Source: Candidatus Bathyarchaeum sp.
Lineage (GTDB): Archaea > Thermoproteota > Bathyarchaeia > Bathyarchaeales > Bathyarchaeaceae
Length of the DNA stretch: 18,700 nucleotides
Assembly: GCA_026014495.1 (NCBI GenBank)
Contig: JAOZIF010000161.1
Span: 1 to 18,700 of the forward strand
Reading direction: 5' to 3'
Made by a program: the position numbers and the translations under genes. Under the pieces are notes generated by a model that worked only from the letters and a program-made list of their open reading frames with translations, made no database searches and had not been told where the DNA came from. The number at the start of each line of letters is the position of its first letter. The first letter of the stretch is position 1. Shown piece by piece: positions 3,971 to 15,885 of this stretch.

Positions 3971-4744
3971 ATGAAAACATCAATCATCAAAGAATTCGAG
4001 AAAGTTGAGTTAAAAAATCCGATTCTTTTGGAAGGGTTTCCTGGGTTGGGTATGGTGGGAAGCATAGCCACAAAATACCTTGTTAAACATTTGAATGCTA
4101 AAAAACTGGCGGTTTTGCATTCTCCTCATTTTCCGTACCATGTTATTGTCAACAAAAAAGGAAGTGCTAGGCTTCTTCGTGGGGAATTTTATTTCTGGAA
4201 AAATGAGGCTGGAGAAAACGACTTCATTTTCTTAACTGGAGACAGCCAAGCCCAGACAATTGAGGGCCAGTTTGAGGTTGCGAACAGTATTCTTGATTTT
4301 GCTGAAGCAAAAAAAGTGAAAACAATCGTAACTATTGGTGGGTACAGAAATGAAATTGAAGGTACCCCAAATGTGGTTGCAGTGTCCACAACTCCCGCTC
4401 TTTTAGAGAGGGCACTAAAAGCTAATGCGGTGCCCAGCGAGTCTGGGACTCCTATTGTTGGTACTGCTGGTTTGCTTTTAGGGTTGGCGAAATTTAGGCG
4501 TTTGGATGCTGTTTGTCTTTTGGGTGAGACTCGTGGATATTTGCCTGATCCGCGGACGGCAAAAAGTGTTATCGAAGTTCTTCAGGGGCTTTTGGGCATA
4601 TCTGTTGATTTGAAGGGTTTGGATAAGGATATAGAGCAGTCTAAAGAGATTCTAGGTAGAATGCAAGATATTGAGAAAAGACGAGTTAAATATATGCAGA
4701 AGATGCGCAGGGTAGAAGAGGAGCGCATCACCTACATTTCTTGA
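3971..4744 (+). CDS. PAC2-family proteasome assembly chaperone-like protein
   Basis: PILLEGFPGLGMVGSIA, HFP, GDSQ, TIGGY, PIVGTAGLLLG and CLLGETRGY..DP motifs; conserved neighbour of nop10. Confidence 0.88.
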   Translation: MKTSIIKEFEKVELKNPILLEGFPGLGMVGSIATKYLVKHLNAKKLAVLHSPHFPYHVIVNKKGSARLLRGEFYFWKNEAGENDFIFLTGDSQAQTIEGQFEVANSILDFAEAKKVKTIVTIGGYRNEIEGTPNVVAVSTTPALLERALKANAVPSESGTPIVGTAGLLLGLAKFRRLDAVCLLGETRGYLPDPRTAKSVIEVLQGLLGISVDLKGLDKDIEQSKEILGRMQDIEKRRVKYMQKMRRVEEERITYIS

Positions 4745-4757
4745 TGCTTTTTTGTGG

Positions 4758-6995
4758 TTAATCATAGACAACTTCGAAGACGCATACAGCTGCTGCAAAG
4801 TAAGTGTCTGAACTTACGTAGTACCAATCGAGTGTTTCAGCTTCTTGCGAGAAATATGCTGGCTCAAAGTGTTCCAGTTCAATTGTTGATGAACCATACA
4901 TAAGCATTTCTTTTGTGTACCACATCAGTTTGTACAAAACTGTGCTGTTTCCAACGTCGTTAACTACTAGTTCGTCAGAGTCTACTGTGCCATCATCACT
5001 TGTATCCACCCAATCAACTCCTAGGCTGTAATCTCCGTATTTATCATCATCTAATCCTGCAATCCGTGCCATCCATCGCCATTTTCCTTCGTCGCCATAT
5101 CCGTAATCGTTTCCGTTGTTATCGAAGGTTATGAAAATCAAGACATATTCTGAATCATAGCGTTCTAGTATTTTGATTGCTTCAGTTTCATTTGACATGT
5201 ACATTTCGCCAATGTTCCCTATCTGCGTAGTATTCACAGTACCGTTATCCGCAAGCGTTGTTACATTTCCAATAGTCGTAATCCAGTATCCGTAGTCCCA
5301 CCAAGATACCACTATACTGTTTGAGTTTAGATTGACCCGCATCCAGTTGAGCGTATCTAACCAGTCGCTGACTTGACCTCTAAGCGGTAAACTAGAAGCA
5401 GCAATGGTTGTTGGTGAATTTGCACGCTCTATAACTCTTGAATATGATGAACCACTGCTTGGCAATACAAAAGTGACTGTCAGCAAGAGGAACATCAAAA
5501 TGATAAAGCCCGCGCTGAATTCTTTGCCCACGCGCGGTCTGAAGCGCATTTTACGCCTCGGGACTTTTGGTTTCTCTCGTAGAATTGTGACAAAGGGTTT
5601 AACCAGTTCAACCAACGCTAGTGCCCATAGTATGCTAACAACGGGTGCCAAAAGCAAACTTAATCGCGCCATTGACCCTGCAAAGTATATTGCTGTTATA
5701 CCAAAGATTCCAAGGAAAATATTGCGGTTTGTAGGATTCTGCACAATAAAGAATAGACCAAGAGGTACAAATAGAATGCCTATGCCTAAATCATAGTAGA
5801 ATGTTCCCCATGTGGTTGGTCTGTGTTCCTGAACTGACTGAACCAGTTGTTGTACAGCACTTTCACCTAGCCGTTCAGTGGGGAATATTACTGAAATGAA
5901 TTTGTTTCCTAATTCTCCAACAAACCCAAGACTTGCAAGCCCAACGAACAAGATGACAATAAGCGATAAGAACCCAATTACAAAAAATGTTTTGTTTTTA
6001 GGTGTTTTGATTCGTCTAGACATCTCTAAGGTGAACAACAAGAGGAACATTCCCGCCACTGCCAAAACTGTGGGTTCTGTCAGAAATTCAATGCCTAATT
6101 TTGGTACTTGTACTGCTATAAGAAGTGCCAAGGCGAAGACTGTAGAGTATGAAATAAGAAGACGCGTTGAATATCTACGTAAAATGAGTAGAACGAAAAC
6201 AAAAACTAGTACTATTCCAAGAGGATACAGTGCCGCTCCCCAAGATGCAAAGAGATATCCTAACGATAATCCTCCAGCAACTGCGTATGTAACTGTGCTT
6301 TTAATTGACCTTTCGGGGTCAATGGACCTTAGGAAGAAAAATATGAACAAGAGTATGCCGAAGATTCCGACGGTTTCGTCGTCAAAAAAGCCAAGGGAAG
6401 TACGACTAATATATGATGAACTTAGGGCTAAAAAGAATGCTGAAAAAAGCCCAACTGATTTGCCGCCAATGTCTCTTCCTACAAAGTAGACGACCAGAAC
6501 TGTCAATGTCGCCATAATTACTGGAAATATTACACAAAAATTGAAAACTGGGTCAGCGGTTAGAGGGTGATAAACATCTGAGGTGAGGATTGCTCCTGGA
6601 GCAAGATTCAGTGCGTTAGCTATCTGATAAAAGAATGCTGCTGTTGCTGCCAGTCCAGGATAAATTACGGCTGAAACTGGATATCCTTGTGGATACCAGC
6701 TCATGGGGTCTACCCATGTTGTCCAAGAAAAGAATCCGTTATCAACCATGTAACTTGTTAAGCGGTAATGCATGTGGGGGTCAAATTCTGAGAGTTGAAA
6801 ACCCCAACGAAGAGGAAGCAGCCTAATCGTGGCAGTTATTGCAAGAATAACAAGCAGTAGTGATATGTGCAACATCGAGGAATGAGATAGCCTTAATCGA
6901 AGAGCTCCAATGCTGGTTAAGGCGTTACCTGTACTTTCTTTACTAAACATTTTTCCAATCTTCACCGCAAACCCTTCTCTCGTCAATGAAAGCAA
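4758..6995 (-). CDS. aglB: Oligosaccharyltransferase catalytic subunit AglB/STT3
   Basis: Multi-TM N-terminus with EFDP, YPGL and SVQEHRPT, then WWDYG, DNGT and DEGKWRWMARIAG. The start is uncertain: TTG 6995, GTG 6965 or ATG 6950. Confidence 0.95.
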   Translation of the reverse strand: MLSLTREGFAVKIGKMFSKESTGNALTSIGALRLRLSHSSMLHISLLLVILAITATIRLLPLRWGFQLSEFDPHMHYRLTSYMVDNGFFSWTTWVDPMSWYPQGYPVSAVIYPGLAATAAFFYQIANALNLAPGAILTSDVYHPLTADPVFNFCVIFPVIMATLTVLVVYFVGRDIGGKSVGLFSAFFLALSSSYISRTSLGFFDDETVGIFGILLFIFFFLRSIDPERSIKSTVTYAVAGGLSLGYLFASWGAALYPLGIVLVFVFVLLILRRYSTRLLISYSTVFALALLIAVQVPKLGIEFLTEPTVLAVAGMFLLLFTLEMSRRIKTPKNKTFFVIGFLSLIVILFVGLASLGFVGELGNKFISVIFPTERLGESAVQQLVQSVQEHRPTTWGTFYYDLGIGILFVPLGLFFIVQNPTNRNIFLGIFGITAIYFAGSMARLSLLLAPVVSILWALALVELVKPFVTILREKPKVPRRKMRFRPRVGKEFSAGFIILMFLLLTVTFVLPSSGSSYSRVIERANSPTTIAASSLPLRGQVSDWLDTLNWMRVNLNSNSIVVSWWDYGYWITTIGNVTTLADNGTVNTTQIGNIGEMYMSNETEAIKILERYDSEYVLIFITFDNNGNDYGYGDEGKWRWMARIAGLDDDKYGDYSLGVDWVDTSDDGTVDSDELVVNDVGNSTVLYKLMWYTKEMLMYGSSTIELEHFEPAYFSQEAETLDWYYVSSDTYFAAAVCVFEVVYD

Positions 6996-10079: not shown

Positions 10080-10499
10080 ATGGCTAAAGGTTTCAGCAAA
10101 CAAATTTCCTCTATTGCCTTTTCATTACAAAAAACATACGAGAAAATACTTACCGCAAAGCCCTCCTTAACGATTGTTGCCCTTGCAGCTGTCGGTGTTT
10201 CACTATTCTTGCTTGCCGGAGGAATATATGACATCATGACTCAGCCCATCGCAGCGTACGTAACTTCAGCTGGCGAGATAGTTGCCTTTTATCCATATGG
10301 AATAACTGAACAGTTGCTCCTAGAAAGCGTAATTGTAATGCTCTTTTATGCACTGGGAGTCGTGGGCTTTCTTATAGCATATCGAAGCACAAAGTACGCT
10401 TATACTCCAAGTCAAGCATACAGGTTCCTGCTGATTGGCGCTGTTTTGCTCCTTATATCCTATGTTTTGCTAGAACAAAATCTGCTAGCCAATTTCTAG
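10080..10499 (+). CDS. OSTC/DC2-like (OST3/OST6 family) three-TM membrane protein
   Basis: FLLAGGIYDIMTQP, VAFYPYGITEQLLLES, LGVVGFLIAYRS and LLIG match the recalled DC2 pattern FLITGGIIYDVIVEP / VAF..Y....QYIMEG / GGLGFII..RS / LLFIG. By-eye comparison only. Confidence 0.7.
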   Translation: MAKGFSKQISSIAFSLQKTYEKILTAKPSLTIVALAAVGVSLFLLAGGIYDIMTQPIAAYVTSAGEIVAFYPYGITEQLLLESVIVMLFYALGVVGFLIAYRSTKYAYTPSQAYRFLLIGAVLLLISYVLLEQNLLANF

Positions 10500-10535: not shown

Positions 10536-11078
10536 TCAACTGCTTTTTCCTTTGTTTTTCATGTTCAACAGAGCCGCCCCTAGATTTGTTATCAGATGTA
10601 TTGGGATTGTTACCAGAAGAATAATTCCTGCCTCTAGCAAGGAAGGAGGAGAAACTGGAATGGAAAAAAGGAATGCTCCTAAAATGAAGTCTAGCTGGTC
10701 TGCTATTGGAAGGGAGCTTCCGGGAGAGCGGTTTAGTCGCCGTTTAGCAAACGATTCTATCAGGTCACCTGTTAAGGCTCCTAGAGAGAGCATAAATCCA
10801 AGCACAATGCTATATTGAAACTGGGGGCTATACTGAATGAGAACCTGCTCGAAGATGACTGTTTGAGCGAAACCAACTAATGTTCCAACAACAAGACCTG
10901 CAACAAAGCCTCTGAATGTCTTGTGGGAACCAAGTACAGGTTTGCCATCAAAAAAAATTTTACCAAAGTCCATGGGCTTGCCGCCGCCAAAGATAACAGG
11001 TGCTGCGTTGGCGCAGTAAGCTGGGAAAATAAACCACATAGCGGCGGCGATATCGATTAGCGTTATCATGGTTCTCAT
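10536..11078 (-). CDS. carS: CDP-archaeol synthase
   Basis: PAYCANAAPVIFGGGKPMDFGK, GSHKTFRG, GDLIESFAKRR and DQLDF motifs. Start is ATG 11078 or 11069. Confidence 0.92.
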   Translation of the reverse strand: MRTMITLIDIAAAMWFIFPAYCANAAPVIFGGGKPMDFGKIFFDGKPVLGSHKTFRGFVAGLVVGTLVGFAQTVIFEQVLIQYSPQFQYSIVLGFMLSLGALTGDLIESFAKRRLNRSPGSSLPIADQLDFILGAFLFSIPVSPPSLLEAGIILLVTIPIHLITNLGAALLNMKNKGKSS

Positions 11079-11106: not shown

Positions 11107-11799
11107 CTAGTGTCTGTAATCGCTTATTCCTGTGTTCTCTATCTTAACGTAAGTGTACCCTGTTCCCTTGATTTTAGGATGCTTTTCACGTAAAACTTTG
11201 ATGACCCGTGTTTGACTTGTCTGCCGCATGTCAAGCACAATATCTGACCAATAGTTTAGGACTCGCGTTGCCACCGGCTTCATTTCAACAGTTTCTCCGC
11301 GAAGAACACTTCTCACCTGACTGATAGCCAGAACTGCTACTCCCCGCGTTTTGGCTATCTGTGTCAAAACCGCTAGTTGCCTGTTTAATTCACGGTTTGC
11401 GGCGTATGTTTCTTGTGTGCCGCTTAGTTCAACGCGATACAGTGACGTGACCGTGTCGACAACTATTAATCCAAATTTGTTTGTTATGACCTTTTCAAGA
11501 TGGTCTATTGCTTTTGCCTGTTCCTGAAATGTTGTCGGTCTCATGATAATCATGAGTGGCGAAATTTTTTCATAATCGTAATCTGCTATCTGTGACAGCC
11601 GTTCATAGGAGAATGTTCCATCCGTATCTATGAAAAGGGATTTGATTCCTCTGCGTGCACAATTAACTGCGCACTGAACCGCGAGGGATGTTTTGCCTGT
11701 TTCTGCTTCTCCATAGATGAGAAAGACGCCTTCAGCAGGGAATCCTCCTCCTAATAGTTTGTCCAGCGAAATGCAACCTGTTTGAACAAAATTTTGCAA
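11107..11799 (-). CDS. radB: RadB-like RecA-family ATPase
   Basis: TGCISLDKLLGGG, Walker A GEAETGKT, FIDTDG, Walker B LIVVDTV, ISQVRS and a C-terminal KH motif. Single-domain length, lacking the RadA N-terminal domain. Confidence 0.8.
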   Translation of the reverse strand: MQNFVQTGCISLDKLLGGGFPAEGVFLIYGEAETGKTSLAVQCAVNCARRGIKSLFIDTDGTFSYERLSQIADYDYEKISPLMIIMRPTTFQEQAKAIDHLEKVITNKFGLIVVDTVTSLYRVELSGTQETYAANRELNRQLAVLTQIAKTRGVAVLAISQVRSVLRGETVEMKPVATRVLNYWSDIVLDMRQTSQTRVIKVLREKHPKIKGTGYTYVKIENTGISDYRH

Positions 11800-11975: not shown

Positions 11976-12644
11976 GTGGAATGTGGAAAGTGTAATAGTG
12001 TGAAGACGAAAATAGCTGTTGCAACTGTAAATGGAAGAGCCTATTACGAGCTTGTGAATGAACTGCAAAATAAGAGGTTACCCTTCTTGAGCCTCAAACC
12101 ATGGGATCCTGTTCCCCTAAACGTCAAGGTTGTTCTAACCACAGAAGAGGAGAGTAGCCAGATTTCACATCCTAGAAAGTTACATTTCAAGTTGGGGTCA
12201 AACCCTGAATCTGTGGTAGATGAGGCAGTTTTGATTATTCAGGGAAAGCAAGGCTACGAAAAAGTTGTTATTGGTGTGGACCCCGGCAAAACTTGTGGCA
12301 TAGCCATTCTAGGCGACAGTAAAGTGATAGAAACCTTGACTGCCTCGAGCGTCGAAGAAGCATCATGCCTTATTGTAGACAGCTTAAAGCGGTTTCCAGC
12401 AGAAGTTAGAGTGGTGCGGGTGGGAGATGGAACTCCAGAATACACCAAAACATTGCTTGATTTATTGGATTCTGGTTTGCCAGAAGAGACTTTGGTTGAG
12501 ATTGTCCGTGAGGCTGGGACAAGTCGGACTGCAAGCAGTTCTGTTAACCGCAGAGTGTTAAGGGACACTGTTTCTGCCATAAAAATTGCGGGAAGAAACG
12601 GTCAAATATTTTCGAGGAGGAGCTTTCATGAAGCATGTTGTTGA
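11976..12644 (+). CDS. Hypothetical protein with C-terminal RNase H-like (RuvC/YqgF-type) fold
   Basis: VVIGVDPGKTCGIAILGD beta-strand motif with conserved Asp, then VRVGDG, EAGTS and RD..SA..IA. Start is GTG 11976 or 12000. Confidence 0.6.
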   Translation: MECGKCNSVKTKIAVATVNGRAYYELVNELQNKRLPFLSLKPWDPVPLNVKVVLTTEEESSQISHPRKLHFKLGSNPESVVDEAVLIIQGKQGYEKVVIGVDPGKTCGIAILGDSKVIETLTASSVEEASCLIVDSLKRFPAEVRVVRVGDGTPEYTKTLLDLLDSGLPEETLVEIVREAGTSRTASSSVNRRVLRDTVSAIKIAGRNGQIFSRRSFHEACC

Positions 12645-13911
12645 TGCAGGAAAGACTTTGCTTGTTGATGGTCCTGCTTGTGTGAGCGTTCTCTCTGGAA
12701 ATGTGAGTGTTCTTGGAGCGCTTTTGCCTCTTGAAAAGAATCTTGTTGTCAGGGAAGGAAAACGGTTGCCTTTGTGGGTAAACGAAATGGCTACTGTTGA
12801 GTTGATGCTTGGAGAAGGAGCTTGTATCAACGAGGTTGCCGAAGGAACGGTTCCTTCTTCATGGGATGAAGCTGTAAAGGAGCTTTTGGCTTTGGATAAA
12901 CCAGTAACTGTCATGGTTATGGGTGGAGTGGATTCGGGCAAGACAAGTTTTTGCACTTTTCTTGTGAATTCAGCGGTTATGGCAGATTTGAGAACAGGAG
13001 TTATCGATGCTGATTTGGGGCAGTCTGATGTGGGACCGCCCTCGACTGTGGGATTTAGTTTAGTGAATCAGCCAGTAAAGGACCTTTTTGAGCTTGAGGC
13101 TCAGTGCACGGTTTTTGTTGGCTCGACGAGTCCAAGTGGGTCAATAAGTAAGGTTGTTGATGGGTTGGCTTGTTTGAAAGATAGAGTGCTAGTTGCAGGC
13201 TTGGATTTTCTTGTTATAAATACTGACGGCTGGGTCGAAGGTAAAGAAGCGTCCGCGTATAAAGTTGGGTTAGTAGACGCTGTTGGTTCTAGTGCAGTTG
13301 TTGGAATTCAACAGGGAAACGAGTTGACCCCTGTACTAGATTCTTTGCGCAGCATCAAGACTTTTGTTATAGATTCTCCGCAGCTTATTCAGCCACGGAG
13401 TAGAGAAAAAAGGAAACTTTTGCGGAAACTTAGTTACAAAAAGTATCTGAAAGGGGCAAAGATGCAGTCTTTTTCTTTTAGTTGGATTAAAGTTGAGGAT
13501 TCTCTTTTGGGTGCTGGCGCTCCACTGCACCATAAACGTTTGAATGCGTTGACTAATCTGCTTGGGACAAGACCCATCTACTCTGAAGAAAGTATAGGTG
13601 CAATTCTTGCTGTGCTAAAGAAAAGTGAAAAAGTTACAGAGACGCAGATAAACGATGCAATAGAGCACTTTGGAAAACCAGTCAAAGTAATACGTGAGGG
13701 CGACGAGCAGGGATTGCTTGTGGGACTAAAAGGTGAAGAAGACACTTTTTTGGGAATAGGTGTACTACATGAGGTTGACTACAAGCGAAAAGCCCTGAAA
13801 GTCTATACTCCTGTTGTCGAAAAAGTGTACAAGCTATGTTTTGGGCAGATAAAACTAAACAAAAACTTCAGAGAAATCGGCTTAAGCACGGTGTACTCTG
13901 TGAATCTTTAG
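12628..13911 (+). CDS. Clp1/Grc3/Nol9-family polynucleotide 5'-hydroxyl kinase
   Basis: VMVMGGVDSGKTSF (Walker A), IDADLGQSDVGPP and VINTDGWVEG. GAGGAGG SD before ATG 12628; overlaps the upstream gene by 17 nt. Confidence 0.88.
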   Translation: MKHVVDAGKTLLVDGPACVSVLSGNVSVLGALLPLEKNLVVREGKRLPLWVNEMATVELMLGEGACINEVAEGTVPSSWDEAVKELLALDKPVTVMVMGGVDSGKTSFCTFLVNSAVMADLRTGVIDADLGQSDVGPPSTVGFSLVNQPVKDLFELEAQCTVFVGSTSPSGSISKVVDGLACLKDRVLVAGLDFLVINTDGWVEGKEASAYKVGLVDAVGSSAVVGIQQGNELTPVLDSLRSIKTFVIDSPQLIQPRSREKRKLLRKLSYKKYLKGAKMQSFSFSWIKVEDSLLGAGAPLHHKRLNALTNLLGTRPIYSEESIGAILAVLKKSEKVTETQINDAIEHFGKPVKVIREGDEQGLLVGLKGEEDTFLGIGVLHEVDYKRKALKVYTPVVEKVYKLCFGQIKLNKNFREIGLSTVYSVNL

Positions 13912-13980
13912 TTGCCTGTGTTTGAAAATACTAAATAGATGTTTTATCTTTGTCATTAACTGGACAGGGAGAGTCTCAGG

Positions 13981-14340
13981 TTGTCACGAGCAAAGATTAG
14001 TAAAGAAGAGTTGGTTGAGGAAGACACATCTTTTTTTGCTGTTTACATTGAAACAAAAAATGCAAACCAGTTGTTTTTGAGTGAAACTGAAGACAAGTTG
14101 GGCACCTTGGCTGTGGCTATGCCGCAACCAAAGAACTTGGTTGGCTCGCCTCTTTCTTCGGTGCTGCTTGGAGACCGAAACATGATGGTTGCTCGCCTGT
14201 TAGCTGAGCTTCTTGCTCAACAAACAGGTAAAATCAGTTTAGTTTCAGTTTTCACAAAATCTGTTACCGAACAGCAAGCTGCCTCTATTCTTCGTAAACT
14301 AATGGATAAGGTTCTCAAAAAAGAGGAAGAAACAAACTGA
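13981..14340 (+). CDS. PAC4 (PSMG4/Pba4)-like proteasome assembly chaperone candidate
   Basis: LGTLAVAMP...PLSSVLLGD...LLAELLAQQTGKISLVS matches the recalled PSMG4 pattern LRNLAVAM...PVSTSLLGD...GLAQRLARKTNKQVFVS. Similar length, about 120 aa. By-eye comparison only. Confidence 0.62.
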   Translation: MSRAKISKEELVEEDTSFFAVYIETKNANQLFLSETEDKLGTLAVAMPQPKNLVGSPLSSVLLGDRNMMVARLLAELLAQQTGKISLVSVFTKSVTEQQAASILRKLMDKVLKKEEETN

Positions 14341-14505
14341 ATCTCTAAAGTTTTTGTGTCTACGATTTTTGTTAAAACCCGCAACACCTTAACTGTTTGT
14401 TTTTGTTTGCTGGCAACAATGGTTGCTTGTTGTGTTTGTTTTTTTGCAGCCAACACATATATTGCACCTATTCTATGTAGTTTTGGAATTCCGGAGGAAC
14501 CGTTG

Positions 14506-15885
14506 ATGAATTTCGACGTTATAATCGTGGGCGCTGGTCCGGCTGGAATCTTTTCTGCTCTTGAGTTAGCTGACAAAACAGACCTTAGTGTGTTGCTGTT
14601 GGATAAAGGTCGAGCTATTGATAAACGCAAATGTCCTGCAAGCAGAGGTTTAGGTTGCCTGAACTGTGACCCGTGCTCTTTGTTGGCTGGTTGGGGGGGC
14701 GCCGGCGCTTTTAGTGATGGTAAACTTACTTTGTCCACTGAAGTTGGTGGCTGGCTTAATGAGTACTGCACGCAAGAGCAGCTTTGGGAGCTTTTGCATT
14801 ATGTTGACGATGTTTACATCAAGTTTGGGGCTACTAAACATCTTTATGGCGTTGGACCCGAAAAGTTTGATGAAATTGAACGAAAAGCTTCTCTTGCTGG
14901 GTTGAAGCTTGTTTCTCAGAAAGTTCGGCATATGGGCACTGAAAAATGTGCTGAGACTCTTCTTAAGATGCGTAGTCATCTTGAGGGCAGGGTTGATATT
15001 CGAACTGGAACAGACGTGAAGAGCCTTTTAATAAAAGACGGTAAAGTTGAAGGCGTCGAGACGACAAAGGGCGAAAAGTTCTACGGAACATATGTTATTG
15101 TGGCGCCTGGCAGAATTGGCGCCGAGTGGCTCAAGACTGAGGCAGAGCTTTTGGGTCTAAAAACCTTGAACAATCCTGTTGACATTGGCGTGCGGGTGGA
15201 GCTTCAAGCCGCTGTCATGGAAGAACTAACTAAGACCCTCTATGAGCCTAAGCTGATTTATCACTCAAAATCGTTTGACGATCAGGTGCGAACGTTTTGT
15301 GTTTCGCCTTTAGGAGAAGTTATCACCGAATCATATGATGGCGTCTTAACCGTGAATGGTCAGAGCTACGCTGAGCGGAAAACAAAAAACACAAACTTTG
15401 CCATCCTTGTTAGCACATCCTTCACAGAACCCTTCAGGGAACCCATAGCATACGGAAAATACATTGCAAGGCTTTCAAACTTGCTTAGTGGAGGCGTGAT
15501 TGTTCAGCGGCTAGGTGACCTAAAGGCTGGACGACGCTCAACAGAGGAGCGAATAAAACGGAGCTTGTGTGTTCCAACCCTCAAGAATGCCACGCCTGGG
15601 GACCTTAGCTTTGTTTTGCCCTACCGTTATCTTGCTGACATCAAGGAGATGCTTCAGGCACTGGATAAGGTGTCTCCGGGTGTATACTCAAATGATACGC
15701 TGCTTTATGGTGTTGAAGTGAAGTTCTATTCCACAAGGCTTGAGTTGACTGACCAGCTGGAAACAAGGATTAAGAACATGTTTACTATCGGCGATGGCGC
15801 TGGAGTAAGCCGTGGTCTGATTCAGGCTTCTGCTTCTGGAGTTATAGTTGCTAAGGAGATTGCGAAGCGGGCAAAGAAGCAGTAA
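14506..15885 (+). CDS. FAD-dependent oxidoreductase/dehydrogenase of unknown substrate
   Basis: Rossmann DVIIVGAGPAG, GWGGAGAFSDGKL, NPVDIGVRVE, RTFC, VNG.S, TNFAIL, YGVEVKFYS and IGDGAGVSRG. GGAGG SD before ATG 14506; the ORF track N-terminal extension is probably spurious. Confidence 0.85.
   Translation: MNFDVIIVGAGPAGIFSALELADKTDLSVLLLDKGRAIDKRKCPASRGLGCLNCDPCSLLAGWGGAGAFSDGKLTLSTEVGGWLNEYCTQEQLWELLHYVDDVYIKFGATKHLYGVGPEKFDEIERKASLAGLKLVSQKVRHMGTEKCAETLLKMRSHLEGRVDIRTGTDVKSLLIKDGKVEGVETTKGEKFYGTYVIVAPGRIGAEWLKTEAELLGLKTLNNPVDIGVRVELQAAVMEELTKTLYEPKLIYHSKSFDDQVRTFCVSPLGEVITESYDGVLTVNGQSYAERKTKNTNFAILVSTSFTEPFREPIAYGKYIARLSNLLSGGVIVQRLGDLKAGRRSTEERIKRSLCVPTLKNATPGDLSFVLPYRYLADIKEMLQALDKVSPGVYSNDTLLYGVEVKFYSTRLELTDQLETRIKNMFTIGDGAGVSRGLIQASASGVIVAKEIAKRAKKQ

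Follow-up and report, generated by a model that had tools for sequence, protein, structure and literature searches.

All archaeal membrane lipids are built from precursors made by the archaeal mevalonate pathway, which is also the subject of current engineering toward isoprenoid production. One of the pathway's enzymes, anhydromevalonate phosphate decarboxylase (AMPD), is of the UbiD type and requires prenylated FMN (prFMN) (PMC12547664). In Lactiplantibacillus plantarum, activation of UbiD is assisted by LpdD, a dimer of the Pba3/Pba4 fold that binds prFMNH2 and has a conserved metal site at H35, H61, and D63 (PMC10865409). The fold recurs in the eukaryotic proteins PAC3 (PSMG3, Pba3; PF10178; structures 2Z5E, 6JPT, and 8QYJ chain L) and PAC4 (PSMG4, Pba4/Poc4; PF16093; 5WTQ, 8QYJ chain M, and 8TM3). 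Among archaea, the PAC1/PAC2-like proteins PbaA and PbaB are the only homologues of proteasome chaperones described in the literature that we found (PMC3605417), and our searches turned up no paper that treats archaeal (including Asgard) homologues of PAC4 or links an LpdD-like factor to the mevalonate pathway.

Here, we analyzed a PAC4-like gene in an 18,700-nt stretch of DNA (hereafter the window; contig JAOZIF010000161.1 of assembly GCA_026014495.1) from Candidatus Bathyarchaeum sp. The original prediction, made from the sequence alone, had taken the product for a homologue of PAC4 and placed it in proteasome assembly. We considered these two claims separately, the first through sequence profiles and structural models and the second through the genes that surround the family in related archaea and in the window genome (2.19 Mb, 93% complete).

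A PAC4-like protein family in Bathyarchaeia

The ORF listing and its translation agree with the original prediction on a 119-aa product containing LGTLAVAMP, PLSSVLLGD, and LAELLAQQTGKISLVS, and the opposite strand over the same interval is stop-rich with no open frame (Table 1). The start of the protein is kept as M/L-SRAKI in 20 orthologues, and the Shine-Dalgarno-like motif ahead of the TTG codon presumably serves as the ribosome-binding site, as judged from its sequence and position. The gene is genuine and under purifying selection, with dN/dS values of 0.12-0.22 against 13 orthologues.

Table 1. Coordinates of the PAC4-like gene, its flanking features, and the PAC2-family gene within the window
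Feature	Position	Strand	Remarks
PAC2-family (PbaA/PbaB-like) gene	3971-4744	+	PF09754, E 2.7e-44
CDP-archaeol synthase CarS gene	10536-11078	-	
RadB gene	11107-11799	-	
Weak DUF460-like protein gene	11976-12644	+	
Clp1-like P-loop polynucleotide kinase gene	12586-13911	+	PF16575
Shine-Dalgarno-like GGGAGAG	13967-13973	+	7 nt 5' of TTG start; sequence inspection
PAC4/LpdD-fold protein gene	13981-14340	+	119 aa, TTG start, TGA stop 14338-14340
Three T5 tracts	14351-14355, 14366-14370, 14400-14404	+	Directly 3' of stop codon; from the sequence
FAD-dependent protein gene	14356-15885	+	PF21688 FAD-depend_C; GIDA and Pyr_redox_2 N-terminus

Homologues of the window protein at E<=1e-3 number 395, nearly all of them with PF16093, and they come almost throughout from metagenomic Bathyarchaeia, with one (L031) belonging to Ca. 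Bathyarchaeum tardum, whose genome is complete. An exhaustive HMMER search resolved into 121 clusters at 50% identity, from which 73 full-length members were aligned as a family profile. In this 73-sequence alignment, every family-invariant residue is present in the window protein, which retains the signature N27, G41-T42, P48, S59-S60, G64-D65-R66-N67, A75-E76, and S89. The protein contains no His, Cys, or Trp.

The window protein is a true distant relative of eukaryotic PAC4. Pfam PF16093 matched it at 33.7 bits (E 3.7e-8), above the curated cut-off of 31, and the 73-member family profile, searched against all PDB sequences, retrieved human PAC4 as its sole match (E 2.8e-8, or ~3e-8). Across the family, PF16093 was matched by 61 of the 73 aligned members and the LpdD family PF21758 also by 15 of the 73 (E<=0.01), while NCBIfam yielded for the window protein only a stray FlbB match, far under cut-off. 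The window protein and human PAC4 have the blocks L..LAVAM, S.LLGD, and LA..LA..T.K...VS in common; human PAC4 differs in being without the invariant polar residues N27, T42, R66, N67, and E76 of the archaeal family.

Structural comparison gave the same nearest relative. An initial AF2 model that drew on 20 close sequences (pLDDT 75) was superseded by one from the 73-sequence alignment (pLDDT 95.4), for which the top Foldseek match was human PAC4 (8qyj_M; E 2e-7, TM 0.74/0.78). With VIA-align, the model superposed on human PAC4 in the 20S assembly intermediate with a Z of 14.2 (rmsd 2.2 A over 111 residues, 21% identity), followed by yeast Pba3/4 (2z5b_A; Z 13.6), PAC3 (Z 12.3-12.7), and LpdD (8PO5, 8P4W, and 8PZH; Z 12.1-12.7, rmsd 2.3-2.5 A over 106-108 residues, 6-7% identity); the best unrelated fold lay much lower, at Z 7.8. 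As modeled, the window protein has the PAC3/PAC4 alpha-beta sandwich (Pba3/4-like) fold. Profile search, PDB search, and structural ranking thereby all bear out the predicted homology, with human PAC4 the nearest relative in both sequence and structure.

The comparison with LpdD (8PO5, 8PZO, 8PZH, and 8P4W; PF21758, renamed from PAC_bac to LpdD_chaperone) is closer in architecture than in sequence. Size is about equal and the fold is the same; identity in the structural alignment is at the low level given above, and PF21758 found no match to the window protein in a genome-wide search even at E<=10. Archaeal relatives scored 14-21 bits against PF21758, below its cut-off of 27, and the family profile that finds human PAC4 in the PDB did not recover LpdD from it. 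The window protein, being free of histidine, lacks the H35/H61/D63 metal site of LpdD, and in the 73-sequence family alignment no invariant or near-invariant column is a His. Lack of histidine, together with the lack of a PF21758 match, means that the window protein is not a strict member of the LpdD family. The family profile did align with a Helarchaeales protein named "prenylated flavin chaperone LpdD" by NCBI (hhalign probability 98.7%, E 2e-16), and the archaeal PAC4-like family is continuous with proteins that bear the LpdD name. The window ORF is accordingly placed in a branch of the PAC3/PAC4/LpdD fold that is archaeal, free of histidine, and closest in sequence to eukaryotic PAC4.

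Gene neighborhoods and the link to UbiD

Genomic context was compared over 93 loci with the gene, in which ORFs were called and neighbors clustered; a survey of 401 genomes of the phylum contributed 12 of these loci, genome contigs another 80, and the window the last. A UbiD-family gene stands immediately 3' on the same strand in 44 of the 93 loci, and in 35 of those 44 the two genes overlap by 4 bp. The adjoining UbiD proteins are ~445 aa long and consist of UbiD_N, UbiD (PF01977), and UbiD_C domains. The pairing was found in family f15, whose members are Nitrosopumilus and Nitrosarchaeum by RefSeq name (Nitrosopumilaceae), in families f17 and f3, and in many other Bathyarchaeia. Because the UbiD-coupled proteins match Pfam PAC4 (34 of 34 tested), they belong to the same family as the window protein; six of them scanned singly against PF16093 scored 37.7-42.5 bits, over the 31-bit cut-off, and L084, the first member of the UbiD-coupled alignment, scored 29.4 bits, below it.

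The identity of the coupled decarboxylase was approached through gene order and copy number. In one genome (G004), the order is PAC4-like gene, UbiD gene, and AcnX gene (PF04412), AcnX being the family to which phosphomevalonate dehydratase belongs. G004, G093, and G372 each have no UbiD other than the coupled one, and almost all of the Bathyarchaeia genomes sampled contain a single UbiD. The UbiD coupled to the PAC4-like gene is most probably the AMPD of the archaeal mevalonate pathway, so that the client of the archaeal protein would differ from that of LpdD, which serves an aromatic-acid decarboxylase, even though both families are encoded beside a UbiD-family gene (for the archaeal family in the 44 loci above, though not in the window). 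Translational coupling to a UbiD-type decarboxylase in kin makes service to UbiD likelier than service to the proteasome; the adjacency itself is evidence of linkage, not of mechanism. A complex prediction with two copies of the L084 PAC4-like protein and its adjacent UbiD, both supplied as alignments, returned a score of 0.00, which counts neither way on binding.

Several minor points arose from the same survey. ORFs of ~125 aa just 5' of the gene ("cluster 13"), considered as a possible PAC3-like partner, proved to be spurious reading frames antisense to an HhH-GPD glycosylase gene. Metagenome contigs searched with protein P0246 yielded no relative. Two contigs of MAGs titled Anaerolineales and Limnocylindrales (Chloroflexota), namely L038 (CAYGAW010000052.1) and L089 (DATHCJ010000018.1), carry the Bathyarchaeia-type gene; their proteins nest among Bathyarchaeia rows in the tree, and the gene in both is probably a product of binning contamination rather than of gene transfer.

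In the window, ubiD is not beside the PAC4-like gene, and the next gene 3' encodes the FAD-dependent protein, which occupies the slot of UbiD in 20 of 20 loci of the window's clade. The ORF of this neighbor as listed begins 50 codons before its 459-aa kin, and comparison with them puts its true start probably near 14506, ~165 bp past the PAC4-like gene. Oligo-T tracts serve as transcription terminators in archaea, and the three T5 tracts behind the stop codon are candidates for this role; their position between the two genes suggests that the PAC4-like gene is not co-translated with the FAD-dependent gene downstream. On the other side, the block of Clp1-like kinase, DUF460-like, RadB, and CarS genes is conserved in 44-56 of the 93 loci, with the Clp1-like kinase gene 5' of the PAC4-like gene in 56 of them. 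Between these last two genes, a divergent HhH-GPD glycosylase gene stands in many kin, including at UbiD-coupled loci.

A third context has GNAT and then Sua5 genes downstream and looks like the UbiD context minus ubiD. In a tree of 125 columns with an assumed root on Nitrosopumilaceae, the outgroup and the first lineages to branch off are UbiD-coupled, and the clades with the FAD-dependent gene (SH-aLRT 84) and with GNAT (99) are nested within. Given the small number of columns and the assumed root, we infer, and do no more than infer, that UbiD coupling is ancestral and was lost in the window's clade, which comprises the genus Bathyarchaeum and close kin.

Within the window genome itself, the family profile found a single copy of the PAC4-like family. 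Two UbiD genes are located on contigs C175 and C119, and UbiX on another contig, so that any action of the PAC4-like protein on them would have to be in trans. The genome has its archaeal mevalonate-pathway cluster on C175 (locus L099, 49060-52626), where the gene for a UbiD-family decarboxylase is flanked by those for mevalonate kinase and an AcnX-like dehydratase. The coupled UbiD proteins of kin are only 38-40% identical to the UbiD of this cluster, and the UbiD client in the window genome is therefore uncertain.

Candidate functions of the PAC4-like protein

On balance, we lean toward reading the window protein as an LpdD-like partner, be it a cofactor chaperone or a small subunit, of a UbiD-type mevalonate decarboxylase on which it acts in trans here. 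By analogy with LpdD, a small dimer would take up reduced prenyl-flavin from UbiX and pass it to apo-UbiD; alternatively, the PAC4-like protein may sit on UbiD as a small maturation or stabilizing subunit. Binding of prFMN, binding of UbiD, and formation of a dimer are all expectations carried over from the LpdD system. In the Bathyarchaeum clade, the gene would have lost its place before ubiD, and it now stands by itself between the genes for the Clp1-like kinase and the FAD-dependent protein. Such a helper is not universally required, since MVK, PMDh, AMPD, prFMN synthase, and IPK sufficed to reconstitute the archaeal mevalonate pathway of M. mazei in E. coli (PMC12547664).

The foremost alternative is the one originally proposed, namely that the protein is a PAC4-type 20S assembly chaperone which acts as a homodimer on the alpha ring, alongside the PAC2-family protein encoded upstream. 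In its favor are the homology itself, with a Pfam PAC4 score above the cut-off, human PAC4 as the only sequence match in the PDB, and a best structural match to PAC4 as bound in a human 20S assembly intermediate, as well as the uncoupling of the gene from ubiD in the window's clade. The genome also encodes three proteasome subunits; the two of ~211-218 aa are taken to be beta and the one of 250 aa alpha. The PAC2-family gene, likewise part of the original prediction, is real (Table 1), its protein scoring 183.6 bits against TIGR00162, slightly short of the 200-bit cut-off. However, PbaA/PbaB proteins (PF09754) are unrelated to the window protein in fold and family, and the 9 kb that separate the two genes make for mere proximity; no PAC2 gene was seen near the PAC4-like gene in other loci, whose 4-kb flanks would not reach that far.

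Other evidence speaks against a role at the proteasome. No proteasome alpha gene lies near the PAC4-like gene in any of the 93 loci (flanks of ~1.5-4 kb), and the conserved, coupled gene partner is the UbiD decarboxylase; in this the archaeal family, with neither a PAC3 partner gene nor a genomic link to proteasome genes, differs from PAC4. The absence of a PAC3 partner agrees with the original suggestion that the protein perhaps acts as a homo-oligomer: a PF10178 search of the 93%-complete genome gave no PAC3 paralogue at E<=1, the single copy found by the family profile leaves no second gene, and the best PF10178 match in the archaeal family had an E of 0.098. PAC3, with which the window protein has its fold in common, can form a homodimer according to the title of entry 6JPT, and a single-gene archaeal form would have to do likewise. 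Four archaeal control genomes, each with a proteasome, also lack the PAC4-like family, and archaeal 20S particles self-assemble without helpers (PMC3605417; PMC13022661). Finally, PAC3, yeast Pba3/4, and LpdD match the model nearly as well as PAC4 does, so that the fold, which LpdD employs in UbiD activation, cannot by itself pick the function. We therefore regard a role in proteasome assembly as unlikely, and this part of the original prediction, unlike its homology claim, is not supported.

In the window genome, at locus L017 (contig C194), the gene for the 250-aa proteasome alpha subunit is directly followed by an SBDS-family gene with a 1-bp overlap.

More improbable still are a new client in the Bathyarchaeum clade (the FAD-dependent protein or the Clp1-like kinase), a general scaffold role, and a dual role with UbiD and the proteasome. 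In their favor, the FAD-dependent gene fills UbiD's slot throughout the clade, 56 loci have the Clp1-like kinase gene upstream, and purifying selection persists without ubiD nearby. Against them, the ~165-bp gap with T-tracts before the FAD-dependent gene gives no sign of coupling, the family-invariant residues are unaltered in the clade, which argues for an unaltered function, and the Clp1 neighborhood also occurs at UbiD-coupled loci.

Beyond the window protein, a wider proposal seems to us possible, and we put it forward tentatively. The archaeal PAC4 family as a whole may be an unrecognized accessory of the mevalonate pathway, either a histidine-free prFMN/UbiD chaperone or a small subunit of AMPD, and eukaryotic PAC4 and PAC3 may descend from an archaeal cofactor-chaperone lineage that was recruited to alpha-ring assembly only in the eukaryotic stem. 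If so, the archaeal mevalonate pathway gains a helper with the potential to increase how much of its prFMN-dependent decarboxylase is obtained as holo-enzyme, and the origin of the eukaryotic PAC3-PAC4 pair becomes testable as the exaptation of an archaeal cofactor chaperone. Service to UbiD and service to the proteasome are both open to direct test, as Nitrosopumilus is cultivable and Ca. Bathyarchaeum tardum has been enriched.

Database names and a neighboring observation

Existing annotations of the family clash. As the original prediction had anticipated, annotation pipelines already label such proteins, with NCBI/RefSeq applying "proteasome assembly chaperone 4 (family protein)" to those of Nitrosopumilus and Bathyarchaeia (WP_428325894.1/P0251, P0189, and P0075) and the LpdD name to a Helarchaeales member (P0250). 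It had likewise cited no functional study, and none turned up in the literature searched. Should the mevalonate-pathway reading be true, the "proteasome assembly chaperone 4" names of the Nitrosopumilus and Bathyarchaeia proteins would be functionally misleading and would feed wrong claims of eukaryote-like proteasome assembly in archaea.

Elsewhere in the window, a small membrane protein gene (10080-10499, plus strand) has a sub-threshold match to OST3/OST6 (25.1 bits against a cut-off of 27), and it lies a few kb from a gene for an AglB/STT3 oligosaccharyltransferase (4758-6995, minus strand).
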